Shown: positions 4,570 through 46,976, numbered from the stretch's first letter. The stretch is DNA of 48,378 nucleotides from Candidatus Geocrenenecus huangii (GCA_023254095.1 JALNLM010000010.1:1-48378); one strand, 5' to 3'. The notes: a model not told the origin generated them from the letters alone. A program made the numbers and translations.

Positions 4570-4713
4570 CGGAAAGCCTATAAGGTTAGCCATATTTCAG
4601 GCTTACCTTACCGACAAGGCATCGCTGAATAAATAGGAAACAGTGAGAATCAGTAAATTCCATTAATGGGGAATAGAGTTAATATGCGGGCTTCAATTAA
4701 TCATGTAAAGGCC

Positions 4714-14541: not shown

Positions 14542-14553
14542 CTAACCACCTCC

Positions 14554-15522: not shown

Positions 15523-15524
15523 CT

Positions 15525-16424: not shown

Positions 16425-16431
16425 TTTCTAT

Positions 16432-17484: not shown

Positions 17485-17548
17485 TTTCCGACTCCTTCTA
17501 TACTCAAGGCCAACTATTAATCTTACAGCGTCATTTTAGTTTTTAATG

Positions 17549-18307
17549 CTATACCAAGTTTTTCAGATTCCATGCAAGTAGCTCGGATGTTGGTGGAGGC
17601 TCATATGTACATATCTTGCTATGGCTCCATCCACAAAGCCTCTTTAGTTTTACGAGTTGCTCAGCATGCTTCACAGATGCGATTATCGGGTCTATTACTG
17701 GAACTCTATATTTTTCTTGGACTAGTTTAAAGAATCCAAAGAAGACTGTACATCCAAGTATTATTACTTCGGCTCCTTCTCTAAGACATTCCTCGATTAC
17801 AGCGTACAGTCTCTTCTCGGTTTCTTTCTCATCCTTGTGGAGATCGTGTACTCCTAATCCTATGTCTTTGAAAGAAGTTAGCCTATCTTCTAACCCGTAT
17901 TCTTTCACTCGATTCATCATTAACGGGATCCACTTCTTCCTACCAACCACTATAGCGAATTTCTCTCCTAGAGATAACGCGGTACACGTTGAAGACTCGA
18001 GGGGGGCTGTTACAATAATGTTGCTTATCTCTCTGGCCTCTTTTAATCCAGGATCGTAGAAACATCCAATAACACATGCATCATATCCATTCTTCTCTGC
18101 TTTCTTGACTTCCTCCAAGATATTGGGGATGATGATGGCATCATATGAATAGTATTCTAGATGATGTGGCCCCACGTTAAATGATGTTACATCTATCACT
18201 GTATCCGGGTCTTTATATTTATCTAAGTAATCTTTCATGGGTTTATCGAAGACATCGGTCCCCACAGGATTTATATATAAAACCTTATTCAAGAACGTCA
18301 CCTTCAA
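17549..18307 (-). CDS. Asp/Glu/hydantoin (allantoin) racemase family protein
   Basis: INP, catalytic Cys pair GCFYDPG and ILGCT, PVIDP; true start may be TTG 18292 after an AGGTGA SD. Confidence 0.88.
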   Translation of the reverse strand: MKVTFLNKVLYINPVGTDVFDKPMKDYLDKYKDPDTVIDVTSFNVGPHHLEYYSYDAIIIPNILEEVKKAEKNGYDACVIGCFYDPGLKEAREISNIIVTAPLESSTCTALSLGEKFAIVVGRKKWIPLMMNRVKEYGLEDRLTSFKDIGLGVHDLHKDEKETEKRLYAVIEECLREGAEVIILGCTVFFGFFKLVQEKYRVPVIDPIIASVKHAEQLVKLKRLCGWSHSKICTYEPPPTSELLAWNLKNLV

Positions 18308-18312
18308 TTCAT

Positions 18313-18323
18313 AAAAAATAAAA
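18313..18323 (-). terminator. Possible U-rich archaeal terminator after the binding-protein gene
   Basis: TTTTATTTTTT on the minus strand, 30 nt after the stop codon. Confidence 0.35.
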
Positions 18324-18352
18324 TGGAAGATAAGTTTTTTGTTTTCTCAGCT

Positions 18353-20152: not shown

Positions 20153-20398
20153 CTTTGTAGTAGGATACTTAGACCTAAAATTCTCTAGCTTTCTCCTCAT
20201 AATCTTCTTAAGATAATGCCCCAATAGCGTATATAAAGTTTAATCTAGAATAATTCAAGCATCTATCTAAATAATTAAGATTTCAATAGTTGATATTACA
20301 TTATTTCATGTTTATGATATTTACGGTATAAAATTGGTGATTTAGTAAGTCATAATCTTTAATAAATTGTCATTAATTATTTCATAGATGATTTCAAT

Positions 20399-22453: not shown

Positions 22454-24197
22454 AATGAGCAAGAGAGACATCTTCACTCTAGAGATAATCAAGAGCGGTT
22501 TGATAACTGCCAATGAAGAAATGTTTTACGCTTTCGGGAGAACAGCTAAGAGTCCAGTAATCTATGAAGTATTAGACTACGCCGTAGGGATAACCGATTC
22601 AAAGGGAGAACTGATCGCCCAAGCCCCAGGCGTTCCAGGATTCTCAGGAGTCTTAGACTTCGTAGCCAAAGAAGTACTCGAAAAATGGAGTGGAGAAATG
22701 CGTCCAGGGGACGTTTACATCCTCAACGTACCATATAAGTCTGGGACCCACCTAAACGACGTTACATTAGCAATGCCCGTCTTCTACAGAGACGAATTAT
22801 TATCGATGATCTTGAACAAAGGACACTGGAGTGAAGTAGGAGGAATGCATTTCGGAAGCTGGACATCCGACTCGACTGAAATATATCAAGAAGGTGTACA
22901 ATTCCCTTGTATAAGACTGTATCGTGAGGGAAAACCGAACAAAGATGTAATAGACATTATCTTGGAGAATTCACGTCTACCTCTGCATACGCTTGGAGAT
23001 ATGGAAGCTCAGGCGGCGTCAATGAAGGTAGCTGCTAGAAGAATTGAAAAACTGATTGAGAAATACGGTATAGAGAACGTTAAGAACGCTATGGAGAAGA
23101 TCATAGATGATGGATATAAGCTCGCATTACTTAATTTGAAGAAGCTGCCTAAGGGAGTATTCGAGGCAGAGGATTACCTAGATGACGACGGGTTAACAGA
23201 TGAACCAGTATACGTAAGAGTAAAGGTAACCATAACGGATGAAGAATTCTTAGCGGACTTCACTGGAAGTGGAAGTGTGAAAGGATCTATAGCGTCGCCG
23301 TATCCCGCCACCGTCTCGGGAGTTAGAGAAACATACATGGCTGTAACTGACCCGCATGTAGACTTAAACGGCGGCTACTTTAAACCATTGAAAGTTATCG
23401 CTCCCGAAGGTTCAGCTTTCAATCCTGTCAAGCCAGCTCCTACATCAACGTTCTGGGAAGCAATGTCTTATTCGACAGACCTAGTATGGAAGGCTCTAGC
23501 ACCACATGTACCTGACAAGCTAACTGCCGGACACTTCTTATCAATTCTAGCAACAATTCTAGGAGGCATAGATGAAAGAACGGGTGAACCCTTCGCAATA
23601 GTAGAGCCTCAAGCTGGAGGATGGGGTGCAGGCTACGACATGGATGGAGAAAGCGGGCTAGTAGCATGTGGAGATGGAGAAACCTACATAGCATCAAACG
23701 AAGTCTACGAAAAACACATGCCGATACTTGTGGAGAGATACTGCTTGAACACTGAGAGTGGAACGGGCCATGGTAAGTTCAGAGGAGGATTCGGAGTAAT
23801 AAAAGACTACAGAGTTCTATGTAGTGAAGCTTCTTTCACAGTATCTATCGGTAGAAATAAGTTCCCGCCATGGGGTGTAGCTGGAGGAATGAACGGAACA
23901 CCAAACTACTGCGTAATTTTCAAGCAAGGCGAGGAACCCAAGATCGTTAGAAAAGTAGCAGCAGTAAAACTAAAGAGAGGAGATATGGTAAGCCTAAGGT
24001 CTGGAGGCGGAGGAGGCTGGGGAGATCCCCTTGAAAGAGATCCAGAACTAGTTAGAATGGATGTCAAGAATGAGTACATAACGATCGAGACAGCTAGAGA
24101 AATATATGGGGTAGTCCTAGACCCGAAAACACTAGAAATAAAATGGGATGAGACGAAGAAGCTCAGAGGAGAATTGAAGAAAAAGAAATCCGGATAG
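22446..24197 (+). CDS. hyuB: ATP-dependent hydantoinase/5-oxoprolinase subunit B
   Basis: GTHLND, KGHW, EIYQEG, GKFRGG, GGGGGWGDP; overlaps the hyuA stop. Confidence 0.88.
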   Translation: MGKMSKRDIFTLEIIKSGLITANEEMFYAFGRTAKSPVIYEVLDYAVGITDSKGELIAQAPGVPGFSGVLDFVAKEVLEKWSGEMRPGDVYILNVPYKSGTHLNDVTLAMPVFYRDELLSMILNKGHWSEVGGMHFGSWTSDSTEIYQEGVQFPCIRLYREGKPNKDVIDIILENSRLPLHTLGDMEAQAASMKVAARRIEKLIEKYGIENVKNAMEKIIDDGYKLALLNLKKLPKGVFEAEDYLDDDGLTDEPVYVRVKVTITDEEFLADFTGSGSVKGSIASPYPATVSGVRETYMAVTDPHVDLNGGYFKPLKVIAPEGSAFNPVKPAPTSTFWEAMSYSTDLVWKALAPHVPDKLTAGHFLSILATILGGIDERTGEPFAIVEPQAGGWGAGYDMDGESGLVACGDGETYIASNEVYEKHMPILVERYCLNTESGTGHGKFRGGFGVIKDYRVLCSEASFTVSIGRNKFPPWGVAGGMNGTPNYCVIFKQGEEPKIVRKVAAVKLKRGDMVSLRSGGGGGWGDPLERDPELVRMDVKNEYITIETAREIYGVVLDPKTLEIKWDETKKLRGELKKKKSG

Positions 24198-31232: not shown

Positions 31233-31643
31233 CTATCTTATTCTAGATATCTTGTAAGCTGGGATAATGGATACTACTCCGAGAATGTGTGCGATAGTAC
31301 AATACATACATATAGTGTTAAGAATAGCTAGCTCGATCCATAGTAAGGCCGCTACTGAAGGCACGCTCATTAAGGCCCATACTAAAACTAGATATGAAGC
31401 AGCTTTTCCATGCTTGTAGGATACAACTATCGTTAAGAATAGAAGTGTTAGAAACCATGCTAAGCCGAGAGTGGATAGAGGAATTCCATATATCTTAGAA
31501 TAGGGGCTGGTGATGACTTTATCACATTCTCCGACCCCAATCTTGCATACAGGCTGCCTCGAGGCATATTCCAGGTAGGATGATACAATTACCCCCATTA
31601 TGGAGATTATTATGAGAGTAAGTGTCCAGAAAGTTTTCTTCAA
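31233..31643 (-). CDS. Vitamin K epoxide reductase (VKOR) family disulfide-formation protein
   Basis: 4 TM helices, loop Cys pair C...C-x-V-x-x-S-x-Y-S, GIPLS, CMYC. Confidence 0.92.
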   Translation of the reverse strand: MKKTFWTLTLIIISIMGVIVSSYLEYASRQPVCKIGVGECDKVITSPYSKIYGIPLSTLGLAWFLTLLFLTIVVSYKHGKAASYLVLVWALMSVPSVAALLWIELAILNTICMYCTIAHILGVVSIIPAYKISRIR

Positions 31644-32308
31644 CTTATGGTCCCCTCTATAGCTTTAGCTAATATCTCTATAGAGCTTTCACCGACTATT
31701 TTTTGAACTATGTTATGAGAGCTATCAAGTATAATGAATGTCGGGGTTCCTTCGACACCATACTTGTCAAAGACCTCATAATTAACATCTAGCAGAATTG
31801 TTTGTGTCAAACCATATTTCTCGATTACACTCTTTAATTGCTCTTTCAACGGCGTCGAGATTACTAAGAAAACCATTCTATCACCATACCTTCTACTTAG
31901 TTCTTCTATTGTCGGTATCATGTTTATACAATGTCCACAATTTGGCTGGAAGAATTCTAGGAAAACTGGCTTTCCACTAAAATCCGATAAGCCTATGTAG
32001 CGTTCTAAAGAACTTGATGGGTCATATACTGGTAGAGAGAAATCGGAAGCCCGCTGTAGATTCGGCTTAGAAATAGTTATTTTACTTTGCTGCGTAGTAA
32101 CAGTGGTTGTTGTAGTTTGCTGTTCTAGAGCTGGGAGCCGAATAGTCAAGATGATAAGTGTTATAATCACAACTAGTAGCAGTACAGGTAAAATTACTCT
32201 AACCCCATAATATCTACCAGCATGATCGACCCTCATATGGTTCTTAAGACCGTACTCACTTCTAAAAGACTTCCCACAAACCTTGCAAACATACTTCTCT
32301 TTGTCCAT
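31640..32308 (-). CDS. Membrane-anchored thioredoxin-fold (TlpA/DsbA-like) protein with N-terminal C2H2 zinc finger
   Basis: YVCKVCGKSFRSEYGLKNHMRVDH, TM helix, Thr-rich linker, CGHC, GTPTF cis-Pro loop; 4-bp overlap with VKOR gene. Confidence 0.88.
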   Translation of the reverse strand: MDKEKYVCKVCGKSFRSEYGLKNHMRVDHAGRYYGVRVILPVLLLVVIITLIILTIRLPALEQQTTTTTVTTQQSKITISKPNLQRASDFSLPVYDPSSSLERYIGLSDFSGKPVFLEFFQPNCGHCINMIPTIEELSRRYGDRMVFLVISTPLKEQLKSVIEKYGLTQTILLDVNYEVFDKYGVEGTPTFIILDSSHNIVQKIVGESSIEILAKAIEGTIS

Positions 32309-32377
32309 CTGTAAACCAAGCCTACCTATCCATATAAAAGTTTAACTGAAAAAACTAGTTTAAAGATTAGTTGGGTG

Positions 32378-32469
32378 AGCCCCGGGCGGGGTTTGAACCC
32401 GCGACCCCTGGCTTTCTGTATTTCCTTGGTTTACCAAGCCAGTGCTCCACCAGGCTGAGCTACCGGGGC
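32378..32469 (-). tRNA. tRNA-Thr(GGT) with 18-nt intron (32414-32431) at position 37/38; CCA not encoded
   Basis: Minus strand GCCCCGG TA GCTC AGCCTGGTG GAGC A CTGGC TT GGT A [AACCAAGGAAATACAGAA] A GCCAG GGGTC GCGGG TTCAAAC CCCGC CCGGGGC T; all stems pair; U73. Confidence 0.92.
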
Positions 32470-32547: not shown

Positions 32548-34122
32548 TTATTTTGCATAAGCTCCAGGTTGTTTCCTTGGATCTGAAACTGCTAAGAATA
32601 GGTTATCTTTCTTAAATACTGATTGAACCGCTCCAAAGTATATGTCTGTTCCAGGATACATGGAGACTTCTCTAACTTCACCTATGTTTAGTCCTGCTTT
32701 GATAAGTCCGCTGCTCGAGATCTTATCCTTAATCAAGTCTTCTAAAACTACTCTGTCCCCTCTGACATGTATTCTTCCTTCGAGTACTGAGGAGACTGGA
32801 TCAAGTCTTCTTATAAAGTAGTTAGAGAGAGTCTGTACTAGCGAAGATATTATCCTCATACCTCCAGATGCGCCTATCACTATCGTTGGAGAGCCGTCTC
32901 TATCAAGTATGATTAATGGAGACATACTGCTCGCAGGCCTCTTACCTGGAGATATGGAGTTCGGATGATCTCTCTGAAGGGTGAAGTCATGCATCTCATC
33001 GTTTAGCAAGATCCCTTTAACAGTTATCCCTGAGCCCATAAAACATTCAATGGTTTCTGTGAGAGATACAAACATCTTACCTTTTCCATCTGCAATACTT
33101 ATATGAGATGTTCCACCTCTATCTCCAACTAGGTGGTAGGAGACTCTACCTTTTTCAATGGAATCTAGAGACTGTCTGACATGGTTTTCTGAAAGGAGCC
33201 TATTAAAATCCATCTCATTAAATAATGGGTCTGATATTATGGAACATCTTTCATCAATTATGTGAAAGAGAGTATGTGCAAGTCTTAGGTAATATTCTTC
33301 ATCTTTCAGTTCCGTCTCAGATAATATCTTTAAGGCTTCGATTAATAATATGCCTGAGCTTGGAGGAGGCATAGTTGCGAACTTTAAAATCTTACCTCCA
33401 ATTTCTAATTCATAGATGATTGGCTCCCTCCATATTGCCTTATAGCATGATAGATCTCTTAAGGAGAGGAACCCATTGTTGATAGAGAATATCCTATCGA
33501 TCTCTTCAGCTATCTCTCCTTGGTAAAAGTATTCTATATTGTCTCTAAGCATTCTTAGTGTTTGAGCAAATCCTCTATAGGATATTGTAGAATCCTCAGG
33601 ATATATTTTTCCATCTTTGAAGAATGTAGTGTAGCTTTCTGGGCACATCTTGAGTTTGTATTTTGCATTATCTAGATCTTTGTTCATGCATTTACTCCAT
33701 AATCTTGACACTCGACATGATTCCGCATACTTTATCACTAGGTCTATTATCTTACTCCACTTAAATTCTCCGAATTCTTGATGTAGCATCCAAAGTCCTC
33801 TTAATGTACCTGGAACGGCCACAGCTTTATAGCCGATCGAAGCATCTTCCTCACTTCTATAATCTTCGATTCTCGCTTTCTGTGGAGCTACTTCACGGTA
33901 ATCCAAAGCTCTAAACCCGTGGTCTTCTGAATATAGTAATGCGAATCCTCCTCCGCCTAGACCACTCCAACCTGGCTCGAGCACGTTCAAGAGTAATGAA
34001 GCAGCTATAGCTGCATCAACTGCATTGCCCCCTTCCCGCATTACTTCTAGAGATATGTGTGAAGCTACCGGCGAATGAGAAGATATTGCTTTTTCACCTA
34101 TAGAATATACGTTCTCAGACAT
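32548..34122 (-). CDS. ggt: Gamma-glutamyltransferase (Ntn hydrolase)
   Basis: GGNAVDAAIA, GLGGGGF, DYRE, VPG, TSH nucleophile, LNDEMHDF, PGKRPASSMSP, GASGG. Confidence 0.92.
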   Translation of the reverse strand: MSENVYSIGEKAISSHSPVASHISLEVMREGGNAVDAAIAASLLLNVLEPGWSGLGGGGFALLYSEDHGFRALDYREVAPQKARIEDYRSEEDASIGYKAVAVPGTLRGLWMLHQEFGEFKWSKIIDLVIKYAESCRVSRLWSKCMNKDLDNAKYKLKMCPESYTTFFKDGKIYPEDSTISYRGFAQTLRMLRDNIEYFYQGEIAEEIDRIFSINNGFLSLRDLSCYKAIWREPIIYELEIGGKILKFATMPPPSSGILLIEALKILSETELKDEEYYLRLAHTLFHIIDERCSIISDPLFNEMDFNRLLSENHVRQSLDSIEKGRVSYHLVGDRGGTSHISIADGKGKMFVSLTETIECFMGSGITVKGILLNDEMHDFTLQRDHPNSISPGKRPASSMSPLIILDRDGSPTIVIGASGGMRIISSLVQTLSNYFIRRLDPVSSVLEGRIHVRGDRVVLEDLIKDKISSSGLIKAGLNIGEVREVSMYPGTDIYFGAVQSVFKKDNLFLAVSDPRKQPGAYAK

Positions 34123-34126
34123 CCTA

Positions 34127-35101
34127 TCAACCTATTCTATACCAGTTCCTTAGTCCATCTCTATCTAGCTCGAGTATCACCCCTTTCAATATCCCAGAAG
34201 AATATTCTGAACCTGGATTAAATACTATGGTCTTCCCTACTTTATCGTATCCAGCCGATTCATGTATATGTCCATGGAGACCAATTATCGGTTTGTATTT
34301 TTCAATGAACTTTCTTACAGACTTGCTTCCAACATTTTCCTTCTCCATCTCTCCAAGACTATACACTGGTTTTAGATTCTTATCTAGCTTAGGAGCAACA
34401 TCTATAACCGTATTATAGGGTGGTGGATGGAAACAGCATATTATTTTGTCCCAATCTCTATCGACTAGGTTTACTGTCTTCTCCAACATCTTCCACAACT
34501 TGTTTTCTTCAGCTTCCCTAGGAGTATTCCATGGGGTCGGGTTAACGTGATCGAAGGAGACCATGCCATAGCCTAATGGTAGCTCTACTAATTTACCTAG
34601 AGGATACATATCTCTGATGCTTTTTTTCAATACTGGGTCTATATCTAAGATATCGTCGTTTCCAGGCATAACTATAACTTGCTTATCTTTCTGGACGTGT
34701 TCTTCTAGCATTACGACCCATCTCTTGATATTCTCAGTTATCAATGTTGAGAATAATCTGTTGACTTTTTCAGGATCTTTTTTCAGTTCTTCTACTTCTT
34801 CTCTACTACAAATATATGGATATACTCCACAATTCTTTAATTCATTCTTTGCTTGTTCCAAATTCTCTGATCCTTTAACTATGTTTGTTTTTCCTTTAAA
34901 GGTGTATTGATAGTTTTCTCCTCCGAGGTCTATTATTGGAATTATTGCTTTTCCAGTTAGGTCTCCTGAAAGTATCATAACATCTATTTCATGATGTTGT
35001 GGAATTGAGAGGAATCTTCTAAATACTAGCTCGCTATTATGGATATCAGCGACAAAGAATATTTTGAAGGAGCTCATTCCTCCTCTCGACCTTTCACTCA
35101 A
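34127..35101 (-). CDS. Calcineurin-like metallophosphoesterase (Icc-related)
   Basis: ADIH, SGDLTG, MPGNDD, FHPPP, LHGHIHE, FNPGS. Confidence 0.9.
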   Translation of the reverse strand: MSERSRGGMSSFKIFFVADIHNSELVFRRFLSIPQHHEIDVMILSGDLTGKAIIPIIDLGGENYQYTFKGKTNIVKGSENLEQAKNELKNCGVYPYICSREEVEELKKDPEKVNRLFSTLITENIKRWVVMLEEHVQKDKQVIVMPGNDDILDIDPVLKKSIRDMYPLGKLVELPLGYGMVSFDHVNPTPWNTPREAEENKLWKMLEKTVNLVDRDWDKIICCFHPPPYNTVIDVAPKLDKNLKPVYSLGEMEKENVGSKSVRKFIEKYKPIIGLHGHIHESAGYDKVGKTIVFNPGSEYSSGILKGVILELDRDGLRNWYRIG

Positions 35102-35147
35102 GACCTATATTAATAGTTGAAATATAAAAAAGATTATGGAGTTTTCA

Positions 35148-36806
35148 TTAAGCTGGAGGTATCTCGGCGAATATCTTTTCAGTCTTTATGCCCTTCTTCT
35201 TATTTGCCCAGTTATAGTATGAGTAGAGTATTATGGCTAGCAGTGTCCAGCCTATCATCCAGGAAGGCGATACAAACGTTACGTCTGCAGCCATTTGCTG
35301 TAAACCAAGTACTAAGAGTATAAATGTTGATACAATTGCCGCTCCTCCTACAATCGATATTACAGGGACTCCTCCAATAGTCTTCGTATAGCCCTCCTTA
35401 TAGACCTCCGGCCTCCTAAAGGGCAGGATCGTTGTAGCTATCGCTGATAGGAACCATCTAACGGCTACTGCCGTAACAGCTGTTATCGCATAGAATAGTG
35501 GTCCATATTCTGGAGATGCTAAAATTAATAGCATTAATATGGCTCCGACTATTACTAATGTTATAGACCAGTGTGGTGTCCTAAACCTATCATTAACTTC
35601 CGCCAGCTTCTCCGGGAAGAACCTATCAAATGATAATGCGAATGCGATTCTTGATGGTACCATCATGTATACGGGGATTCCATTCATTACCCATAATGGT
35701 ACAGCCAGAGTAATGATGATGGCGAGTATAGGTGCCCAGCCACCGAAGAGAGAAGCTATAAAGACCGCCCAGGTAGGTGTCTGTACAGGGTTGATTGCAA
35801 GCTGACTATAAGCGCTTTCGGTATTCATTACATACTCGTAGGCTGAGAAGAATTCTCTAAACCCTAGAAGAGTTAAAGATGATATCGAGAGATAGTATGC
35901 GAAGACGAGTATTATTGCTCCAACCGTTCCTAGGAAGAAGTTTCTCTTTGGCCTATCTATCTCTCCAGCCATGTAATTAGCGTATTCAAGCCCCCAGAAT
36001 GCATATGCTGAGATAACGATGCTGAGTGAGAGGGTTATCTCAGGAGACCATGGACCAGGCCAACCCCACTTAGAGGGGTCGCCAGTAGCCGATGCCACAT
36101 AATCTCTCCAACCTGTCGCTGACGCTACATTCATTATCTCATCATATGCCCCTGACCCGTAAGTCATATCCCATAGATTTCTTACCTGACTCGGCGTTAG
36201 AGATGCTGCGTATGCTGCTCCAGCTATAGTAGCTATTCCTGCTACTAGCGCTAGGAGGAAGAGTATGTTTATGACATATTTGTAGACTTTTACCCCTAGT
36301 AGGCTGATAACTCCAAATACCAATACGAAGAATATTCCGAGACCTATTGAAGCGACTGGGTCAGTGGAGAGCGATTCTCCCAAAGAAACCAAACCATTAT
36401 TATGTGTTGCTAATCCTACTTGTATTATCGCGCTTCCCCAGAACCAGGCCATGAAGTAAGACAATGCTCCTACGATCCAGATATGTACTCCGAGTACCAG
36501 TAGTGCCTCTATGTATCCTAGCAATGGGTGGAGTACCCTGGAGATTCCTACATAGTCTGAGGCAGTTCTAGGCATAGCCATGGTTAAGAAGATTACGGCA
36601 AATGCTGCTAGAGCCATTATTACTCCTCCAAGGACTAATGCTAATGGTATGTTTGCTCCAGGCGCAGAGTATCCTTGGCCAGCAGTAAATAGGTAGAACC
36701 CGTCCGCTATAACGTAGTTCGCGGCCATAGCCATGACCGAGAATGCGCCGATCTCTCTTACAAGCCCCGAAGTTCTTCTAACAAATACTATCTCCTCAGA
36801 ACTCAT
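35148..36806 (-). CDS. APC-superfamily amino acid/polyamine permease
   Basis: FVRRTSGLVRE N-terminus, about 12 TM helices, MPR, AGEI, SRIAFALSFDRFFP, TPH, EIPP C-terminus. Confidence 0.9.
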   Translation of the reverse strand: MSSEEIVFVRRTSGLVREIGAFSVMAMAANYVIADGFYLFTAGQGYSAPGANIPLALVLGGVIMALAAFAVIFLTMAMPRTASDYVGISRVLHPLLGYIEALLVLGVHIWIVGALSYFMAWFWGSAIIQVGLATHNNGLVSLGESLSTDPVASIGLGIFFVLVFGVISLLGVKVYKYVINILFLLALVAGIATIAGAAYAASLTPSQVRNLWDMTYGSGAYDEIMNVASATGWRDYVASATGDPSKWGWPGPWSPEITLSLSIVISAYAFWGLEYANYMAGEIDRPKRNFFLGTVGAIILVFAYYLSISSLTLLGFREFFSAYEYVMNTESAYSQLAINPVQTPTWAVFIASLFGGWAPILAIIITLAVPLWVMNGIPVYMMVPSRIAFALSFDRFFPEKLAEVNDRFRTPHWSITLVIVGAILMLLILASPEYGPLFYAITAVTAVAVRWFLSAIATTILPFRRPEVYKEGYTKTIGGVPVISIVGGAAIVSTFILLVLGLQQMAADVTFVSPSWMIGWTLLAIILYSYYNWANKKKGIKTEKIFAEIPPA

Positions 36807-36922
36807 GAGAAAAAATCTCGCATGCTTGCATATAAGATTTTAAGATTACAAAATACACGTTCATCATGATATTACATCCTGAAGGTCTTCCAAGTGTATC
36901 CTTCTTAAAAGTTAATTAGTCC

Positions 36923-38311
36923 GTGTATAAAATATCGGATATTATGAGTAAATTAGATAACATTATGGAGATTGTTGAGAGGAATAAAATCAAGTTCGTC
37001 AGGTTTATCTATGTCGGACTAGACGGGGTTCTAAGAGCTAAGTCGTCTTATCTAGATGAGCTTGAAGACCACTTAATCCACGGTATAGGTTTAACCATGG
37101 CGATGCAGTCTTTCACAGCTCTCGATACGCTACTATCAGAACCGAGATTCGGACCAGAATCGGAAGATATCTTCTTAGTCCCAGACCTAGAAACATTCTC
37201 ACCCATAACCTACGTAGAAGGACAGGGTAGGGTACTATGCGATATGAAGTTGAGAAATGGAGAAGAATGGGGCTTCTGTACTCGCAGTCTCCTCAAGAAG
37301 CTCTCGAAGAGATATAAAGAAGAACTAGGGATTGTTTTTCAGAGTGCTGCAGAAACCGAGTTCTACATACTGAAGCAGACGGCGCCCGATAAAGTTGAGC
37401 CAATAGATTGGGCGAGATGTTTCTCAACGGTCGGATATGACGCTCTTGGAGACATAATCTTAGAGATAATCGACGCGCTTAAAGCCTCGGGAATATCCGT
37501 AGTGAGGATCATTAAAGAATATGGTCCAGGACAAGTAGAGATAAATATGAAGCATAGGAACATATTAAGAGCCGCTGATGATATGGTTGTCTTGAGGGAT
37601 GTTGCAAAAGGTGTTGCGGCAAAACATGGTCTAGTGGCCACTTTCATGGCGAAGCCTTTCGACTGGCATGCGGGAAGCGGTATGCATTTCCACATAAGCG
37701 GTCTAGATACGGAGACAGGTAAAAACGTATTCTATGATAAGAACGATAAGAAAGGATTGAACCTATCTCGAACAGCATACTACTTCATTGGGGGAATCCT
37801 ACATCATATGAAGTCTCTATCGGCTATTGTAGCTCCGACGATAAATTCGTACAAGAGATTGATTCCTGGGTCATGGGCTCCATCGAACATATGCTATGGA
37901 TACAATAATAGGTCTGCAGCAATAAGAATACCGACTACGAGAGTTGGAAAAGAAGAGAAAAATATTAGGATAGAGTTTAGAACACCGGATGCAACCGCAA
38001 ACCCATACCTAGCGCTGGCGGCCACTATAGCGGCGGGGGTTCATGGGATTAGAGAAGAGATCGATCCCGCAGAACCCGTTAACGTAGATGCGTACAAGCT
38101 CTCAAAAGAAGAGAGAGCTAAGAGGAATATAGAACTTCTCCCTACAAGTTTGAGAGAAGCTCTAGAGTATCTTGATAGGGATGACTATCTTAAATCTGAA
38201 CTTGGCTCCGAGCTAATAGAAGAATACATAAAGATCAAGAAGGTTGAATGTGAATCCTATGAACATTATGTAAGCCCATGGGAGATTAAGAACTATGTCC
38301 CAGTATTCTAA
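36923..38311 (+). CDS. Glutamine synthetase-like gamma-glutamyl-amine ligase (PuuA/GlnA3-like)
   Basis: ETEFY, EYGPGQVE, TFMAKP, GSGMHFH, NSYKRL, NRS..IR, RIEFR..D...NPY; lacks the ammonium-site DGSS and has GSWAP instead of GYEAP. Confidence 0.85.
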   Translation: MYKISDIMSKLDNIMEIVERNKIKFVRFIYVGLDGVLRAKSSYLDELEDHLIHGIGLTMAMQSFTALDTLLSEPRFGPESEDIFLVPDLETFSPITYVEGQGRVLCDMKLRNGEEWGFCTRSLLKKLSKRYKEELGIVFQSAAETEFYILKQTAPDKVEPIDWARCFSTVGYDALGDIILEIIDALKASGISVVRIIKEYGPGQVEINMKHRNILRAADDMVVLRDVAKGVAAKHGLVATFMAKPFDWHAGSGMHFHISGLDTETGKNVFYDKNDKKGLNLSRTAYYFIGGILHHMKSLSAIVAPTINSYKRLIPGSWAPSNICYGYNNRSAAIRIPTTRVGKEEKNIRIEFRTPDATANPYLALAATIAAGVHGIREEIDPAEPVNVDAYKLSKEERAKRNIELLPTSLREALEYLDRDDYLKSELGSELIEEYIKIKKVECESYEHYVSPWEIKNYVPVF

Positions 38312-39272
38312 GATTAGAGAGATCTTAAACACCTTAAAGGATGTCGACGTTGACAAAGTCTTGCAGGCCGTGCAGGATAGGGTAAAAGTATATCCTACAC
38401 CACATTATCTACCGATTCACATAGAATATCTTAATGAGCTAGATCAGAAAGAAAACTTCTGTGGCGCGTTTAGTGCATCATACATCTTGAGAGGTTTAGG
38501 CTACAGGACCCACAGAAATGAAATAGTAGACCAAGACTATATAGCGTATCTTTCAAGAGTAAACGTAGACCCAAGAGACTTAGAAAAAATTAGGAAATTA
38601 AAGAATGAGATAGCTAGTTTATCAGGAGAAGAAGCTAGAAAGATTGTTGAGGAGAACAGAAGTATATGGTATAGGTTTGATGATCTTCCAACAACTGTGA
38701 AGTCTCAGGAGCTTGGCGCTAGCCCTGAAGGAATCACTTACGCAATCCATGAAGTAAGCATGTCTAAGCTTAAAGTAATACCTGTGAAGACCGTTAGTAA
38801 GACTGAGGATGAGCTCTTATCAAGCGAGAAAATGGCCGTCCTTCTAGAATTATTCAAGAAAGCTGAAGTATACAATGCACAGTTTATACTAAACTTGAAC
38901 ACGAGATACTTGTTAGACTCTGAGAAGATCTTTAAGTTATCAGAGAAGCTTCTGTTGGGAGAAGTGTTCCAAGAAGTTTATAGAGAAAGTGTTGGGCACT
39001 ATGTTGGATGTGCTGGCTTGATAGAAGTTAACGATAAGCCTTTAATCATTATAAGAGAAACGTATCGGAAGTATGGAGTACATCTTCAACCTGCAGAATA
39101 TGTTAGAAGAGCTCTAATAAGAGAGGATGGAAGGGAAGGTGGAGTCCTAATCATTGTTCCAGCAGATTTAGAAAAGGATCTTAAGAAGATGCTGAGTGAT
39201 AGAGGATTAAGGGTGGAGACTTGGGATAATGGAAGCCCATATACTCCGTTTACCAGCCGGCGAACCTTCTAA
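38295..39272 (+). CDS. Uncharacterised papain-fold-like Cys hydrolase
   Basis: Q-x4-CG (QKENFCGAF) followed by a helix, GHYV, IRETY; overlaps the GS-like gene by 17 bp. Confidence 0.6.
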   Translation: MSQYSKIREILNTLKDVDVDKVLQAVQDRVKVYPTPHYLPIHIEYLNELDQKENFCGAFSASYILRGLGYRTHRNEIVDQDYIAYLSRVNVDPRDLEKIRKLKNEIASLSGEEARKIVEENRSIWYRFDDLPTTVKSQELGASPEGITYAIHEVSMSKLKVIPVKTVSKTEDELLSSEKMAVLLELFKKAEVYNAQFILNLNTRYLLDSEKIFKLSEKLLLGEVFQEVYRESVGHYVGCAGLIEVNDKPLIIIRETYRKYGVHLQPAEYVRRALIREDGREGGVLIIVPADLEKDLKKMLSDRGLRVETWDNGSPYTPFTSRRTF

Positions 39273-40584
39273 CCTTCTCTTTATCTATTCTATCTTTTTC
39301 TAAGTCGTCCACAGCTTTTTCAAATATTTCTAATGCTTTCTCTACATCTTCACTACTCACCGTTAAGGGTGGGGTAATCTCTATGACGTTAGAATATGTT
39401 CCTACGTAAGTAACGAGTAGACCGAGCTCGAAGGCTCTATAGACGAGGCAGGCAGCCTCGAAGGTAGCGGGTGTCTTCGCTTTAGGGTCTTTAACCAGCT
39501 CAGCTCCTAAGATCATCCCCTTACCTCTAACATCACCTATTAGTTGATGTTTTTCTCTTATCTCGTTAAGCCTCTTCAAGATGTAGTCTCCCACTCTAGC
39601 AGCTCTTTCATGAATTTTATCTCTCAAGATTATGTTTATGGTTGCTAATGAAGCGACACAGCTAACTGGATGAGCGCTACTTGTGAAGAGATGGGCCGCT
39701 ATAGCCGCGTCCATGATCTCTCCTCTTCCGACGACCGCGCTTAGAGGGAGTCCGGAGGCCATGGGTTTAGCCATAGATATAACGTCTGGAGCCACATTTG
39801 AATGTTCTATAGCGAAGAACTTGCCTGTTCTTCCAAATCCGACTTTAACTTCATCGACGACTAAGCTTATCCCTCGATGCTTACAGATCTTATGTAGTTT
39901 GGGGATGAATTCTGGAGGTGGAACGATTACTCCGCCATCGCTTTGTATAGGCTCAATAATTATTGCAGATAAGTCTTCAGCTGGAGCATTCTCTATAACA
40001 TTATTCTCAAGAAAGTCTATACATAGTAACCCACATTCTGGATATTGTTGCTTGAATGGACATCTATAACAATAAGGATATGGAGCCTTCAAGGTGTTTG
40101 GGAATCCGATAAATCTTGTTAATGCTTTATGCCCAGATAAGCTCAGAGCCCCCATAGTCTGTCCATGATAAGATCCCTGAAATCCAAGCAGCCTCCTTCT
40201 ACCAGAATATATAGGCATTATCTTATAGATTAACTCATTAGCATCTGAGCCTGTTAAACCAAACCATACCTTCTTCTTGAAATCTCCAGGTGTTACCTCT
40301 ACTAATCTTTCAGCTAATTCTATTCCCACAGCGTTTGGGAAAGTAGTATGAGATGAGAATACTAACTTTTCTAGTTGTTTCTTCACTGCCTCGATTACTT
40401 CTGGGTTATTATGTCCTAGATTCGTTACAGCCCATTGCGATGAGAAATCTATATACTCTCTACCTTCTACATCCCAGATCTTTGAATTAAAAGCTCTATC
40501 AACTACTATTGGATAAAATCTTATACCTATAATTCTGCCAACTACACGTTCTTCTCTCTCCAAGTATTCAAGTACGCTAGACAT
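39250..40584 (-). CDS. Class III PLP aminotransferase (GABA/putrescine transaminase-like)
   Basis: DVEGREYIDF, LGH, GSDANE, SYHGQT, EPIQSDGG, DEVKVGFGRTG, MAKP. Confidence 0.9.
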   Translation of the reverse strand: MSSVLEYLEREERVVGRIIGIRFYPIVVDRAFNSKIWDVEGREYIDFSSQWAVTNLGHNNPEVIEAVKKQLEKLVFSSHTTFPNAVGIELAERLVEVTPGDFKKKVWFGLTGSDANELIYKIMPIYSGRRRLLGFQGSYHGQTMGALSLSGHKALTRFIGFPNTLKAPYPYCYRCPFKQQYPECGLLCIDFLENNVIENAPAEDLSAIIIEPIQSDGGVIVPPPEFIPKLHKICKHRGISLVVDEVKVGFGRTGKFFAIEHSNVAPDVISMAKPMASGLPLSAVVGRGEIMDAAIAAHLFTSSAHPVSCVASLATINIILRDKIHERAARVGDYILKRLNEIREKHQLIGDVRGKGMILGAELVKDPKAKTPATFEAACLVYRAFELGLLVTYVGTYSNVIEITPPLTVSSEDVEKALEIFEKAVDDLEKDRIDKEKVRRFAGW

Positions 40585-40638
40585 GCTTATAGTATCCCTC
40601 TTATGCCATATAAATTTATAAACATCTAGACTATTAAA

Positions 40639-41463
40639 ATGCCCGGAGTAAGGTTGATAGACGAATTTTCATCTAAAGTATTGAAGACAGCTCTCGAAAT
40701 CGTTGATGCAGCTCATAATAGAGGTGTAGTAGCAAGGATCTTGGGAGCAGTAGCGACGTACCTCCATTGCTGTAACGATACCCAGGCTCTAACATTCATC
40801 AAAAACGCGGGGAGACTTACTACCGGAAAGGTATTTACAGACGTGGACCTAATAGCTTACAGTAAGCAGCGGAAACAATTAGTAAACCTTATGAGAGAAT
40901 TGAATTTTGATGAGAATAAAATTATAAACGCATTGTTCGGATATAAGAGATTGTTGTTCTTTAAAGATCAGGTAAAAGTCGATATATTCTTTGATAAACT
41001 AGAATTCAGCCATGATGTATTTTTTGGGAGTGAGCCAGGTAAAGGAAGGCTTGAAATAGATTATCCCACAATAAGCTTAACAGACTTGATGTTAGAGAAG
41101 CTCCAGATACATCAAATAAATAAGAAAGATATAATCGATATAATAGCGGTCTTGATAGTGCATGATGTAGGCGATACAACTGAAAAAGAGGTCATAGATG
41201 GGAAGTATATAGGGAGCATATTGTCCGATGATTGGGGCTTCTGGTATGACGCACTTGAAAATTTGAAGAAAGTTGAGTACTTCGTAAATAAATTTAGAGA
41301 AGAGAACCTGTTGAGTTCTGACCAATCTACTAAGGTTCTCCAAAATATTGAAAAGATTAAGATAGCTATTGAAAATACTGAGAAGACTAAGAACTGGATT
41401 AAACGCTCTAAGATAGGTACCTCAAAACCATGGTATAGGGAAGTTGAAGATTTGAATGTTTAA
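40639..41463 (+). CDS. Stand-alone Pol-beta-superfamily nucleotidyltransferase-like protein
   Basis: ILGAVA (hG[GS]-like), TDVDL, KVDIF third Asp, C-terminal LEKL...KKDIID helix motif. Confidence 0.7.
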   Translation: MPGVRLIDEFSSKVLKTALEIVDAAHNRGVVARILGAVATYLHCCNDTQALTFIKNAGRLTTGKVFTDVDLIAYSKQRKQLVNLMRELNFDENKIINALFGYKRLLFFKDQVKVDIFFDKLEFSHDVFFGSEPGKGRLEIDYPTISLTDLMLEKLQIHQINKKDIIDIIAVLIVHDVGDTTEKEVIDGKYIGSILSDDWGFWYDALENLKKVEYFVNKFREENLLSSDQSTKVLQNIEKIKIAIENTEKTKNWIKRSKIGTSKPWYREVEDLNV

Positions 41464-41548: not shown

Positions 41549-42733
41549 ATGGTGAAGTTAATCCAGTTTTATAGCCCTCGAGGCTTAAAGCTCTCTAGGG
41601 CGGAAAACCAGTATGTATGGGATACCAATGGAAGAAAATATCTAGATTGTCATACTCAGTACGGGTCAATCTTTCTAGGACATAGAAACCCGAAGATAAC
41701 AAACGCTATCAAAGAACAGATCGATAAGATTTACGGAGCATATCCGGCATTTGATACAGAAGCTAAAGAGAAAGCATTAGAAAGTCTAAGCAAGATTCTC
41801 CCAAGAAAACTTGAATACGTATACATGTTGAACGGGGGAGGAGAAGCAGTAGAATTAGCATTAAAGATTACTAGAAAAATTACAGGAAGAAAGAAATTCA
41901 TCTCCTTCATCAATGCATTTCATGGAAGAACAATGGGGGCCTTATCTGTTACATGGAATCCAAAATACAGAGAGGGATACGATCCATTCCCATGGGATGT
42001 AAAATTCCTACCATACAATAAGGTTGAAGAACTGGAGAAAGAAGTAGACGATGGAATAGCCGGGGTCATCGTTGAAGTAATACAGGGAGAAGGGGGGCTG
42101 AATGAGGGATCAGTAGAATTCCTGAAAGCTATTAGAGAAGCATGTGATAAGGCGGGGGCACAGATGATTATAGACGAGGTCCAGACAGGCTTCGGTAGAA
42201 CAGGATATCTCTGGGCACATCAGATCGCAAACGTAGAACCCGACATACTAGTAGCAGGGAAAGCTATAGGAGGAGGATTTCCAGTAAGCTTAACTGCTGT
42301 TAAAACAGAACTTGGAGAAAAACTAAAAGAAGGAGACCATGGATCAACTTTTGGAGGAAATCCGATTGCATGTGCAGCCTTAACAGCCTCCATTCAAGTC
42401 TTACTAGAAGAAAAAGTAGTAGAAAGGGTAGCTCAAACAGGCAGGATATTTAGAGAAAGTCTTGAAAAGGTTAAGGAAGATTTTGGAGAAGTTGTAAGAG
42501 AAGTAAAGGGCCGGGGATTGTTCCTCGGCATAGAGACAAGATTTGAACCTACATCTATACTAAAACTATTACAAGATAATGGTGTGATAGCTTTAAGAGC
42601 TGGAAGACTGGTAGTAAGATTCCTACCTCCATACATGATATCTACAAAAGACATAGAGTATGCGGTGGGAACGCTTAGAAATGTTCTAAGCCAGGTAAAA
42701 GAAGAAAAAATAGTAACGAAAACACAAACCTAG
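41549..42733 (+). CDS. lysJ: [LysW]-aminoadipate/glutamate semialdehyde transaminase (ArgD family)
   Basis: AFHGRTMGALSVTWNPKYR, IQGEGG, DEVQTG, AGKAIGGG, HGSTFGGNP, RFLPP. Confidence 0.9.
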   Translation: MVKLIQFYSPRGLKLSRAENQYVWDTNGRKYLDCHTQYGSIFLGHRNPKITNAIKEQIDKIYGAYPAFDTEAKEKALESLSKILPRKLEYVYMLNGGGEAVELALKITRKITGRKKFISFINAFHGRTMGALSVTWNPKYREGYDPFPWDVKFLPYNKVEELEKEVDDGIAGVIVEVIQGEGGLNEGSVEFLKAIREACDKAGAQMIIDEVQTGFGRTGYLWAHQIANVEPDILVAGKAIGGGFPVSLTAVKTELGEKLKEGDHGSTFGGNPIACAALTASIQVLLEEKVVERVAQTGRIFRESLEKVKEDFGEVVREVKGRGLFLGIETRFEPTSILKLLQDNGVIALRAGRLVVRFLPPYMISTKDIEYAVGTLRNVLSQVKEEKIVTKTQT

Positions 42734-46508: not shown

Positions 46509-46976
46509 TTACCTCGATCTATTCTTATCTATATATTTTTCCCCATTTCCTTCAGGCTTCATTGCATGATAATATTGTTTCGGATTCTCTGCAGCTTCTC
46601 TTGCCAGCCTATCAGCTTCCCTATTTTCTACTCTACTTATATGCATTATCTTGAACTTCTTAATATTCTTCATCAATTCCTGCACCTCTCTATACAACCT
46701 TCTTATCTTCTCATCTCTTACATTGTATTCTTTATTGATCTGCTTAACTAGGAGCTCGCTGTCAGAGTAGAGCTCAACTTCATCTGCACCCAATCTAGAA
46801 GCTATTTCGAGAGATTTGATCAAAGCTAAGTATTCTGCCTCATTATTAGTCCTTAAACCTATGTAATCTGAGGATCTAAAGATCTCCCGTCCCTCTTCAT
46901 TATAGATTATTAACCCTATCCCAGATGGACCAGGATTACCTTGAGAAGACCCGTCGAAGAATATCTTCAGCTTCAA
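46509..46976 (-). CDS. rnhA: Ribonuclease HI
   Basis: FDGSSQGNPG, TNNEAEY, SDSELL, NREAD.LA. Confidence 0.93.
   Translation of the reverse strand: MKLKIFFDGSSQGNPGPSGIGLIIYNEEGREIFRSSDYIGLRTNNEAEYLALIKSLEIASRLGADEVELYSDSELLVKQINKEYNVRDEKIRRLYREVQELMKNIKKFKIMHISRVENREADRLAREAAENPKQYYHAMKPEGNGEKYIDKNRSR

Follow-up and report, generated by a model that had tools for sequence, protein, structure and literature searches.

The seven-gene island considered here belongs to Candidatus Geocrenenecus huangii, a hot-spring archaeon, and occupies positions 32548..41463 of the window, that is, of the whole analyzed stretch of DNA of 48,378 nt (GCA_023254095.1 JALNLM010000010.1:1-48378; Table 1). A first-pass annotation had described seven contiguous genes next to a tRNA, and all seven open reading frames were recovered where it had placed them, with the tRNA-Thr (GGU) gene 78 nt from the stop codon of the γ-glutamyltransferase (GGT) gene. 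The tRNA gene is outside the functional unit: it adjoins the island only in the genus of the window, and in genus g2 other genes flank the island. The reported absence of a C26 hydrolase (PuuD) and of an aldehyde dehydrogenase also holds for the island genes.

Table 1. Genes and other features of the island and its border, in window coordinates.
Feature	Coordinates	Strand	Basis and remarks
tRNA-Thr (anticodon GGU)	32377..32469	-	93 nt; ARAGORN
Cytoplasmic GGT (Ntn hydrolase)	32548..34122	-	PF01019, E 4e-109, 366 bits; last gene of the APC-MPE-GGT operon
Calcineurin-type metallophosphoesterase (MPE)	34127..35101	-	PF00149, 28.6 bits (cut-off 21.5)
APC-superfamily permease, 552 aa	35148..36806	-	PF13520, E 4e-25; first gene of the APC-MPE-GGT operon
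Putative divergent promoter region	36807..36943	.	Two conserved TATA-like blocks
GS-like ATP-dependent γ-glutamyl ligase	ORF 36923..38311, likely gene 36944..38311	+	PF00120, E 3e-115
DUF6885, predicted papain-fold Cys/His enzyme	38295..39272	+	PF21819, E 3e-42
Class III (fold-type I) PLP enzyme	39250..40584	-	PF00202, E 2.5e-103
Pol-β-superfamily nucleotidyltransferase (NTase), 274 aa	40639..41463	+	Motif and predicted fold

The ligase most likely starts at the ATG at position 36944, and the region between it and the permease gene would act as a divergent promoter. The alignment of nine orthologous intergenic regions shows two invariant TATA-like blocks, one (ATATAA) at about 36830 and the other (AAAGTTAATTAG) at 36908-36919, each approximately 25-30 nt from its own start codon. 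Two RNA libraries from a single study contain contigs matching portions of the APC, GGT, ligase, DUF6885, and PLP genes. These matches are a weak sign of expression of the island rather than proof of transcription, because carry-over of DNA is possible.

The genes have nearly coinciding distributions among 61 related genomes. GGT is present in 13 of them, and orthologs of the ligase (60% identity or more) are found in the same 13. DUF6885 occurs in 12, the exception being G034, whose contig ends at the ligase gene; orthologs of MPE and NTase are present in 12 and 11 genomes, respectively. Among ten loci fetched from relatives, seven contain all seven genes in the order of the window, two are cut by contig ends, and one genome has the seven genes in two places. 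In G017, one contig carries APC-MPE-GGT-ligase as a single co-directional run and a second carries DUF6885-PLP-NTase; the genes are rearranged yet all kept. In genus g2 the order is conserved despite unrelated flanks. The juxtaposition of the seven genes is not due to chance, and they behave as one unit. The first-pass annotation had made its interpretation dependent on the genes being found together elsewhere; they co-occur in other genomes, so the interpretation survives this test. Within the unit two modules are distinguished, one formed by the ligase and DUF6885 and the other by the permease, MPE, and NTase.

The ligase belongs to the glutamine synthetase (GS) superfamily (Gln-synt_C) and has kept the residues that bind metal, ATP, and glutamate: E144, E146, E199, E206, H255, H257, R312, R330, R335, and E351 do not vary among 13 sequences. 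The genome encodes its own canonical GS (contig C5), which contains LDGSS and the flap PGYEAP. In the ligase, the D50/DGSS site is absent, the loop with Y179 is deleted, and the flap reads PGSWAPS, with Trp replacing E327. The two features highlighted in the first-pass annotation, the lack of DGSS and the Trp in the Glu flap (GSWAP), are thus both confirmed by this comparison. Assignment as a glutamine synthetase proper was rejected, as the ammonium site (D50/S53 of DGSS, Y179, and the E327 flap) is missing. The same active-site changes are described for PauA7 and GlnA3 in the available part of PMC5403932, and with the invariant catalytic residues they support the proposed assignment of the protein to the non-ammonia, γ-glutamyl-amine type.

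By published residue descriptions, as far as the accessible parts of PMC5403932 and PMC8394153 give them, the signature of retained metal, ATP, and glutamate residues, lost D50 and Y179, and Trp at E327 is shared with PauA7 (PA5508), GlnA3 and GlnA2 of Streptomyces, and the glutamate-putrescine ligase GlnA-2 of Haloferax mediterranei. The same parts of these papers contain no mention of a DUF6885 partner of these enzymes. Set beside them, the island ligase scores below the NCBIfam cut-off for γ-glutamylputrescine synthetase, although this model (NF045547) is its best match (432.8 bits, cut-off 650). It shares 29% identity with PuuA from E. coli (E 1e-54), and among solved sequences true GSs come closest to it (268 bits). 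A quick tree places the archaeal ligases nearest to the GS of the same genome, on long branches and weakly supported (83).

The first 17 nt of the DUF6885 gene lie within the ligase gene. Q51, C56, and H235 are invariant in its product (alignments A1 with 13 and A2 with 10 sequences, two rows being common), and position 255 is a conserved acid, Glu in six archaeal rows and Asp in seven rows of A1 and in all ten of A2. An invariant W310 is followed by a nearly invariant DNGSP tail. The AF2 model (pLDDT 93.8) matches 42 chains at Z 8 or more, the matches listed being cysteine peptidases of the papain fold. The protein is therefore predicted to have the papain-like (clan CA) cysteine peptidase fold with a Gln/Cys/His site, and its earlier designation as papain-like is borne out by the model. 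The best fold match is Alr0975 from Nostoc, a "primitive phytochelatin synthase" (PDB 2btw, 2bu3, and 6tho; Z 15.6 and rmsd 2.9 for 182 residues, with a Foldseek E of 2.4e-6). The papain fold and Gln/Cys/His are common to the two proteins, and according to the PDB entry titles Alr0975 acts on a γ-glutamyl peptide and was solved as a γ-Glu-Cys acyl-enzyme. However, the identity is only 13-15%, and DUF6885 has its own C-terminal W-DNGSP motif and extra helices. None of 13 DUF6885 members matched the phytochelatin synthase family PF05023 (MEROPS C83) at E up to 5, and the modeled likeness is one of fold only. No papers on DUF6885 were found in the searched literature, which leaves out most subscription journals.

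DUF6885 is tied to GS-like ligases across Archaea and Actinomycetota. The APC-ligase-DUF6885 arrangement recurs in a second archaeal family. Among 72 actinobacterial loci with full-length DUF6885, a GS-like gene is directly adjacent on the same strand in 44 and lies elsewhere within 8 kb in a further 15; the remaining 13 lack one, and in eight of these the contig extends for less than 1.4 kb on one side. The DUF6885-adjacent ligases are spread over several clades of the quick tree, which fits an enzyme that would read the common glutamyl part of a conjugate. The bacterial neighborhoods contain GntR regulators, aldehyde dehydrogenases, class III and class V PLP enzymes, and M20 peptidases, and look catabolic. 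A PuuD-like C26 gene is present in only two of the 72 loci; since these two have both genes, DUF6885 is no simple substitute for PuuD. In the genome of the window no convincing PuuD was found, the matches to PF07722 (C26) being two weak partial ones (40 and 30 bits) inside frames of 577 and 522 aa.

The GGT has a full-length domain, a Thr nucleophile, and the pocket motifs of γ-glutamyltransferases (PF01019). It is 29% identical to Ggt from E. coli (E 9e-59), the alignment beginning after the E. coli signal peptide; the Thr of "GGTSH" is found opposite that of "TTH" in the E. coli enzyme, and both SSMSP and GG are kept. The score with the TIGR00066 equivalog model (289.7 bits) is below the cut-off of 357.85. 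Together with DUF6885, the island carries two candidate γ-glutamyl-cleaving enzymes.

The class III aminotransferase of the first-pass annotation stands as a member of the class III family, although not securely as a transaminase. In the PDB, its nearest sequences are those of a broad-specificity amino-acid racemase (344 bits), an amino-acid amide racemase (337), and an aminocaprolactam racemase (336), followed by Ala/Ser racemase (326) and Ile 2-epimerase (317); GABA transaminases (276) and PuuE (253 bits, 33% identity) are behind all of these. Since the closest solved relatives are racemases of the class III fold, transamination is not secure. Archaeal enzymes of the same clade are racemases, according to the accessible part of PMC6047364. 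Every NCBIfam match, racemase models included, is below its own cut-off. By these similarities the enzyme is a transaminase or a racemase, and it may be the latter. No oxidase of the PuuB type and no aldehyde dehydrogenase of the PuuC type are found among the seven genes. The suggested oxidation of an aldehyde by a W-AOR is not upheld, as the AOR gene (10059-11945) lies 20 kb from the island, outside the conserved unit. Three aldehyde dehydrogenase genes (PF00171) are present in the genome on other contigs.

The three remaining genes have a history of their own. The MPE has all five metal-binding motifs of calcineurin-like metallophosphoesterases: GD, GNDD, H225, GH, and HE are invariant in 12 sequences (alignment A6), and D19/H21 are nearly so. 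The NTase has no Pfam match, and its proposed identity as a nucleotidyltransferase is borne out by the G...DxD...D motif of the pol-β superfamily (G36, D68-x-D70, and D115, invariant in 11 sequences) and by the predicted fold (AF2 pLDDT 88.7). The best fold matches are ANT(2'')-Ia (Z 12.7), LnuA (Z 12.7), and the toxin MenT1 (Z 11.5). The catalytic motif is common to all of these, but identity to ANT(2'')-Ia, LnuA, and MenT is 14-16%, the Foldseek matches are weak (best E 1.7e-3), an additional helical domain forms the C-terminus of the archaeal protein, and its gene accompanies those of a permease and an MPE rather than lying in a resistance or toxin-antitoxin context. The permease shows no real similarity to PuuP from E. 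coli.

The phyletic patterns of NTase and MPE match (26 and 24 of the 61 genomes, respectively). Paralogous APC-MPE-NTase sets exist in other families, with permease paralogs heading stand-alone cassettes; at 19 of 23 non-island loci MPE paralogs adjoin NTase paralogs, and at 9 of the 23 an amidase of the FmdA/AmdA family is beside the cassette. Of 401 sampled genomes of the phylum, 77 (about a fifth) contain the NTase family. NTase and MPE are absent from the bacterial and the second archaeal versions of the ligase-DUF6885 loci. Thus, the NTase and phosphoesterase, previously regarded as an unexplained pair, are not a stray part of the glutamylation pathway but form with the permease a separate cassette widespread in the phylum. 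Nothing on this cassette was found in print, again in a search leaving out most subscription journals.

Gamma-glutamylation is the main route by which bacteria detoxify or consume polyamines, ethanolamine, and aromatic amines, and the hydrolase step of such pathways is taken to be performed by a C26 enzyme. The Puu system of E. coli (puuP-puuA-puuD-puuR-puuC-puuB-puuE, NC_000913.3) has the logic and the layout of divergent operons in common with the island: an APC-type importer, a GS-like ligase, a glutamate-regenerating hydrolase, and a class III PLP enzyme. Unlike Puu, the island lacks the C26 hydrolase PuuD, the oxidase PuuB, the aldehyde dehydrogenase PuuC, and PuuR; its permease is unrelated to PuuP by sequence, DUF6885 and GGT are in the position of the hydrolase, MPE and NTase are added, and the PLP enzyme is nearer to racemases than to PuuE. 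The unit probably varies a strategy known from bacteria: an amine would be imported and tagged with glutamate, and a cysteine enzyme would remove the tag. We favor, with a probability of roughly 0.55, a self-contained unit for uptake and processing of an amino compound by Puu-like γ-glutamylation, in which glutamate would be regenerated by DUF6885, GGT, or both.

In the scheme that we infer from the gene content, the permease would import the amino compound, and the ligase would use ATP and glutamate to form its γ-glutamyl amide. DUF6885, apparently translationally coupled to the ligase and predicted to be a Cys-His thiol enzyme most similar in fold to primitive phytochelatin synthase, would cleave an amide bond of the conjugate. 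It may take off the γ-glutamyl group, in the role of PuuD, or it may cut just beyond γ-Glu-X in the manner of phytochelatin synthase, the cytoplasmic GGT then freeing glutamate. The PLP enzyme would act by transamination or racemization, either on the still-tagged compound or later on its product. The permease, MPE, and ANT/Lnu-like NTase would represent an older three-gene cassette that provides the import step, and a nucleotidyl or phosphoester step by NTase and MPE may act on the substrate or serve as a regulatory switch.

Other explanations agree with parts of these data. That the seven genes are unrelated neighbors with no common function could be argued from their four transcription units of differing orientation; it is hardly credible given the coinciding phyletic patterns, the gene order kept while flanks differ, and the retention of all seven genes in the rearranged G017, and it is already contradicted by the order conservation and the co-occurrence of GGT and ligase. 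The ligase might instead be a second glutamine synthetase, with NTase and MPE as a GlnE-like switch for its adenylylation and de-adenylylation. These two could plausibly add a group and take it off again, and true GSs are nearest to the ligase both among solved sequences and in the quick tree. We consider this very improbable, as D50/DGSS, the Y179 loop, and E327 are all gone, a canonical GS is already encoded in the genome, the NTase fold resembles ANT, Lnu, and MenT with no GlnE among the matches listed, and the APC-MPE-NTase cassette mostly occurs with no GS-like gene.

A rather unlikely alternative is salvage of D/L-amino acids, amino-acid amides, or lactams, in which the PLP enzyme would be a racemase, the ligase would act on the α-amino group, DUF6885 would cut after γ-Glu-X, and GGT would free X and glutamate. 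The PLP enzyme is indeed nearest to racemases and epimerases (317-344 bits vs. 276 for GABA transaminase), the archaeal enzymes of its clade are racemases, and an FmdA/AmdA-family amidase accompanies the paralogous cassette. Moreover, the two cleaving enzymes would get different bonds: phytochelatin synthase cleaves γ-Glu-Cys|Gly, and Alr0975, the best fold match of DUF6885, was captured with γ-Glu-Cys. On the other hand, fold similarity does not fix the bond that is cut, no NCBIfam racemase model reaches its cut-off, we know of no GS-like ligase that acylates α-amino groups of amino-acid amides, and such an ATP-spending detour is hard to justify compared with a plain amidase. An improbable one is a biosynthetic or homeostatic unit that makes and turns over a γ-glutamyl compound (a thiol or compatible solute, for example), much as cells use a ligase, phytochelatin synthase, and GGT to handle glutathione. 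The three central enzymes, a GS-fold ligase, a phytochelatin-synthase-like thiol enzyme, and GGT, are the three enzyme types acting on γ-glutamyl peptides, but an operon headed by a permease that is kept with the ligase-DUF6885 pair in three lineages, the patchy distribution (13 of 61 relatives), the catabolic look of the bacterial contexts, and the lack of a Pfam phytochelatin synthase match at E up to 5 for DUF6885 argue against this.

Returning to Puu-like processing of an imported amino compound, a more detailed joint reading can be offered only tentatively. DUF6885 might be a new thiol-enzyme family for γ-glutamyl conjugates, repeatedly recruited in place of PuuD by different lineages of GS-like ligases in Archaea and Actinomycetota, with the regiochemistry of phytochelatin synthase, that is, cutting or transferring after γ-Glu-X; the archaeal island would therefore also need GGT. 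The APC-MPE-NTase cassette might serve Thermoproteota as a hitherto unrecognized uptake device: the nitrogen compound brought in, the transporter, or the enzymes would carry a nucleotidyl group transiently, until released by the phosphoesterase. If true, an obligately ligase-linked papain-fold enzyme found in both domains would be a new catalytic family for γ-glutamylation, and DUF6885 would have a testable function, with the permease-phosphoesterase-nucleotidyltransferase cassette as a separate unexplained module. The archaeal island would be a natural "complete kit" from a thermophile, comprising an importer, a ligase, two candidate de-glutamylases, and a PLP enzyme, and, coming from thermophiles, its proteins should be stable and easily assayed.

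The observation of a seven-gene island in the first-pass annotation is confirmed by comparison with related genomes: all seven genes occur in the window's order in 7 of the 10 DUF6885 loci fetched from them. The island (32548-41463) consists of seven ORFs in four transcription units and comes from an archaeal 1.6-Mb, 96%-complete genome. Close protein homologs of the window carry source labels of Aigarchaeota, Caldarchaeales, or Nitrososphaerota, and hot-spring metagenomes hold near-identical DNA. The minus-strand run of the APC permease, metallophosphoesterase (MPE), and gamma-glutamyltransferase (GGT) genes has gaps of 46 and 4 nt, and the genes of the glutamine synthetase (GS)-like ligase and of its papain-fold partner DUF6885 overlap by 17 nt. 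Separating the permease and ligase genes is a 137-nt stretch with two blocks that are invariant across nine orthologous loci, each located approximately 25-30 nt from a start codon; we infer that these blocks are divergent archaeal promoters. Among RNA-library contigs (two libraries, one study), there are partial matches to the genes of the permease, GGT, ligase, DUF6885, and PLP enzyme, a weak sign of expression, as DNA carry-over is possible. None of them covers the MPE or nucleotidyltransferase (NTase) genes, and such contigs cannot show absence.

Table. Coordinates of the island genes and of other features in the window
Feature	Coordinates	Strand	Basis
LysX/ArgX-like ATP-grasp ligase	2388-3233		
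Semialdehyde dehydrogenase	3517-4593		
Amino-acid kinase	4666-5520		
LysX/ArgX-like ATP-grasp ligase	8092-8940		
M20 deacylase	9004-10062		
Aldehyde oxidoreductase (AOR)	10059-11945		
Opp/Dpp-type peptide ABC transporter	13579-20224		
Asp/Glu/hydantoin racemase	17549-18307		
Hydantoinase/oxoprolinase A and B subunits	20399-24197		
VKOR-family membrane protein	31233-31643		
C2H2 zinc finger-thioredoxin-fold protein	31640-32308		
tRNA-Thr	32377-32469		
GGT	32548-34122	-	Pfam/NCBIfam
Metallophosphoesterase (MPE)	34127-35101	-	Pfam/NCBIfam
APC permease	35148-36806	-	Pfam/NCBIfam
GS-like ligase	36944 (likely start)-38311	+	Pfam/NCBIfam
DUF6885	38295-39272	+	Pfam/NCBIfam
Class III PLP enzyme	39250-40584	-	Pfam/NCBIfam
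274-aa protein (NTase)	40639-41463	+	ORF; motif and predicted fold
LysJ	41549-42733		Best NCBIfam model Sulfolobales LysJ, below cut-off
RNase H/RVT_3-type protein	46509-46976		

DUF6885 is found in 12 of the 61 related genomes, all from one family. Besides the complete loci, one fetched locus carries six genes up to a contig end, with the seventh gene opening another contig; a further locus is confined to a contig of 4 kb; and in one relative (G017) the DUF6885-PLP-NTase genes lie on one contig and co-directional APC-MPE-GGT-ligase genes on another. A genome-wide search detects GGT in 13 of the 61 genomes and ligase orthologs (at least 60% identity) in the same 13. Orthologs of MPE and NTase are present in 12 and 11 genomes, respectively, the gaps falling at contig ends in 70-78% complete genomes. 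Since no further GGT is found in the other 48 genomes (E <= 1e-60), GGT in this group is confined to the island. Conservation of the permease and the PLP enzyme was derived from the fetched loci.

In another genus (g2), the island is flanked by unrelated housekeeping genes. Thus, the unit is bounded by the NTase and GGT genes, with LysJ and the tRNA as mere neighbors. The tRNA-Thr gene lies 78 nt past the GGT stop codon; its length of 93 nt is above that of a standard tRNA, and it may contain an intron. Integration of the island beside this tRNA was rejected: the island does not stand out in GC content, no integrase-type domain was detected among the neighbors scanned, and in g2 the island is not next to the tRNA. 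A clean empty site was not upheld for G003, a congeneric genome without the island, where the LysJ side is syntenic and the opposite side is rearranged.

The ligase contains a full GS catalytic domain, with the metal, ATP, and glutamate ligands all invariant in 13 aligned sequences. It lacks the DGSS motif and the Tyr179 loop and has Trp in place of the GS flap Glu; the canonical GS encoded on a separate contig (C5) keeps all three. The same active-site signature is described for PauA7 and GlnA3, with E327 changed to Trp and D50 and Y179 missing (PMC5403932), and E327, D50, and Y179 are missing from the Haloferax glutamate-putrescine ligase GlnA-2 (PMC8394153). The best NCBIfam model for the ligase is gamma-glutamylputrescine synthetase, at 432.8 bits against a 650-bit cut-off, and the ligase shares 29% identity with E. 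coli PuuA. The kept catalytic ligands and the lost ammonium site suggest that the enzyme works like a gamma-glutamyl-amine ligase, without assignment to a characterized subfamily. In a quick, midpoint-rooted tree of 71 GS-like sequences with some long branches, the archaeal ligases form one clade, and the DUF6885-adjacent ligases fall into several separate clades. If this tree holds, DUF6885 would have joined with different ligase lineages, which would fit an enzyme reading the glutamyl part common to the conjugates.

The DUF6885 family is small, with 272 clusters (50% identity) in a set of 1.84 billion representatives, and our literature search found no published account of it. Residues Gln51, Cys56, and His235 are invariant, and position 255 is acidic; Q265-P266 of the HLQP block and Trp310 are also invariant, the latter preceding a DNGSP tail that is nearly invariant. 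The AlphaFold model (pLDDT 93.8) predicts a papain fold. In structure comparisons, the model comes closest to Alr0975, the "primitive phytochelatin synthase" of Nostoc (Foldseek E 2.4e-6; VIA-align Z 15.6 with rmsd 2.9 across 182 residues), followed by an unpublished "P210 CD lyase" (PDB 22oc), for which no paper was found, and then by the pseudomurein endoisopeptidase PeiR and C39 peptidase domains. By sequence, DUF6885 falls outside the phytochelatin synthase family. A sequence search of PDB returned nothing meaningful (best E 0.16), and a search of Pfam at E up to 5 gave faint C39-like hints alone. Fusion to a GS-like domain is absent in the six DUF6885 matches scanned, which included the longest among those listed. 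One of them, P0153 (606 aa), combines an EamA-type transporter domain with DUF6885, being either a real fusion or a gene-calling artefact.

The ligase-DUF6885 pair is also observed in a second archaeal family (named Methanomethylicaceae by a source), in the arrangement APC permease-ligase-DUF6885. In two genomes of this family (loci L031 and L033), the trio is convergent with genes for DUF6512 and ornithine cyclodeaminase/mu-crystallin, neighbors that hint at a diamino-acid or cyclic-imine substrate there. A one-genome-per-species scan, built on a narrower DUF6885 alignment (A2), identified 75 bacterial loci, nearly all in Actinomycetota; counts refer to the 72 loci with full-length DUF6885. 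A GS-like gene is directly adjacent on the same strand in 44 of the 72 and lies elsewhere within 8 kb in 15; the remaining 13 have none, 8 of them being truncated at a contig end. In all four aligned DUF6885-linked bacterial ligases, the flap residue is Trp or Phe. The bacterial neighbors include genes for APC permeases, PLP enzymes of classes III and V, M20 peptidases, GntR regulators, and an aldehyde dehydrogenase (ALDH). A hydrolase of the C26 family similar to PuuD of the E. coli Puu pathway is encoded in only 2 of the 72 loci and an ALDH in 3, and no locus has a PuuB-like oxidase; the window's genome contains no convincing C26 hydrolase gene. In two Actinomycetota loci (L046 and L088), an APH-type kinase is fused to a class III PLP enzyme near DUF6885, one of the fusions adding an M23 domain; the kinase-PLP enzyme architecture resembles amino-alcohol kinase/phospho-lyase pairs.

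The NTase and MPE, which the first-pass annotation had left as an unexplained pair, are part of a permease cassette. An NTase profile search gives a match in 77 of 401 genomes of the phylum. Seven of the 30 NTase loci returned are island orthologs; of the other 23, 19 have the MPE gene as an immediate neighbor, and 9 have a gene for an FmdA/AmdA-family amidase in such a position. The distributions of NTase and MPE match (26/61 and 24/61 genomes). Paralogous cassettes elsewhere combine APC permease-MPE with a convergent or co-directional NTase gene. At four loci (L110, L112, L113, and L114), an FmdA/AmdA-family amidase gene followed by the NTase gene is convergent with MPE and the APC permease. 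In G003, an FGGY kinase instead accompanies the cassette together with a class III PLP enzyme; in another relative (G050), two luciferase-like monooxygenases do so. The island is thus a fusion that brings together this cassette and the ligase-DUF6885 pair as well as GGT and the PLP enzyme.

Residues G36, D68-x-D70, and D115 of the 274-aa NTase are invariant. Its predicted structure (pLDDT 88.7) is weakly matched by Foldseek alone; the top fold matches are two nucleotidyltransferases of small molecules, ANT(2'')-Ia and LnuA (Z 12.7 each), then MenT1 (Z 11.5). The MPE keeps all five metal-binding motifs; it has no sequence relative in PDB, and ESM Atlas yielded generic metallophosphoesterase clusters alone.

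The PLP enzyme shares 33% identity with PuuE. Its nearest solved relatives are class-III-fold racemases/epimerases (317-344 bits), which outscore GABA transaminases (276 bits), and archaeal members of this clade are reported to be racemases (PMC6047364). Thus, the transamination proposed earlier is possible, not secure. The alignment of GGT with E. coli Ggt starts directly after the signal peptide of the latter, and both the Thr nucleophile and the pocket motifs are kept, so that GGT reads as an active cytoplasmic enzyme. The AOR, suggested earlier as the tungsten-dependent aldehyde oxidizer of the pathway, lies 20 kb away and outside the conserved block, and was rejected as part of the unit. 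Three ALDH genes are found elsewhere in the genome. The best aldehyde dehydrogenase match, on contig C2 of the same genome (44521-45912), has one in-frame TGA, which may reflect a pseudogene, a sequencing error, or recoding.

The earlier interpretation holds in part: the island is most probably a variant of the known gamma-glutamylation strategy, with a non-orthologous thiol enzyme, DUF6885, for which no published function was found, and a separate, widespread transporter cassette. In the proposed scheme, where all enzymatic roles are predictions from sequence and fold, the permease would admit a compound, and the ligase would spend ATP to couple the amino group of that compound to glutamate. 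The tagged form, or its product, would be the substrate of the PLP enzyme, and DUF6885 and GGT would strip the tag and return glutamate. The two candidate de-glutamylases may be redundant or differ in substrate range. Alternatively, like its closest relative by fold, DUF6885 may cut the bond past gamma-Glu-X, leaving GGT to free the glutamate. The NTase and MPE are candidates for transient nucleotidylylation of the imported compound or for a modification switch on the transporter or enzymes. With the AOR outside the unit and the ALDH genes elsewhere, an oxidation step, if any, would come from unlinked genes.

The window contains several other features. A LysW-type amino-carrier pathway is represented by dispersed genes, namely those for the two LysX/ArgX-like ligases, the semialdehyde dehydrogenase, the amino-acid kinase, the M20 deacylase, and LysJ. 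The peptide ABC transporter has an Asp/Glu/hydantoin racemase gene embedded in it and is adjoined by the hydantoinase/oxoprolinase subunits; the region 13579-24197 possibly forms another unit handling nitrogen compounds or lactams. In a further protein, an N-terminal C2H2 zinc finger is fused to a thioredoxin-fold (AhpC/TSA, Redoxin) domain; its gene overlaps that of the VKOR-family membrane protein, and the pair is kept in relatives. The RNase H/RVT_3-type protein is 155 aa long.
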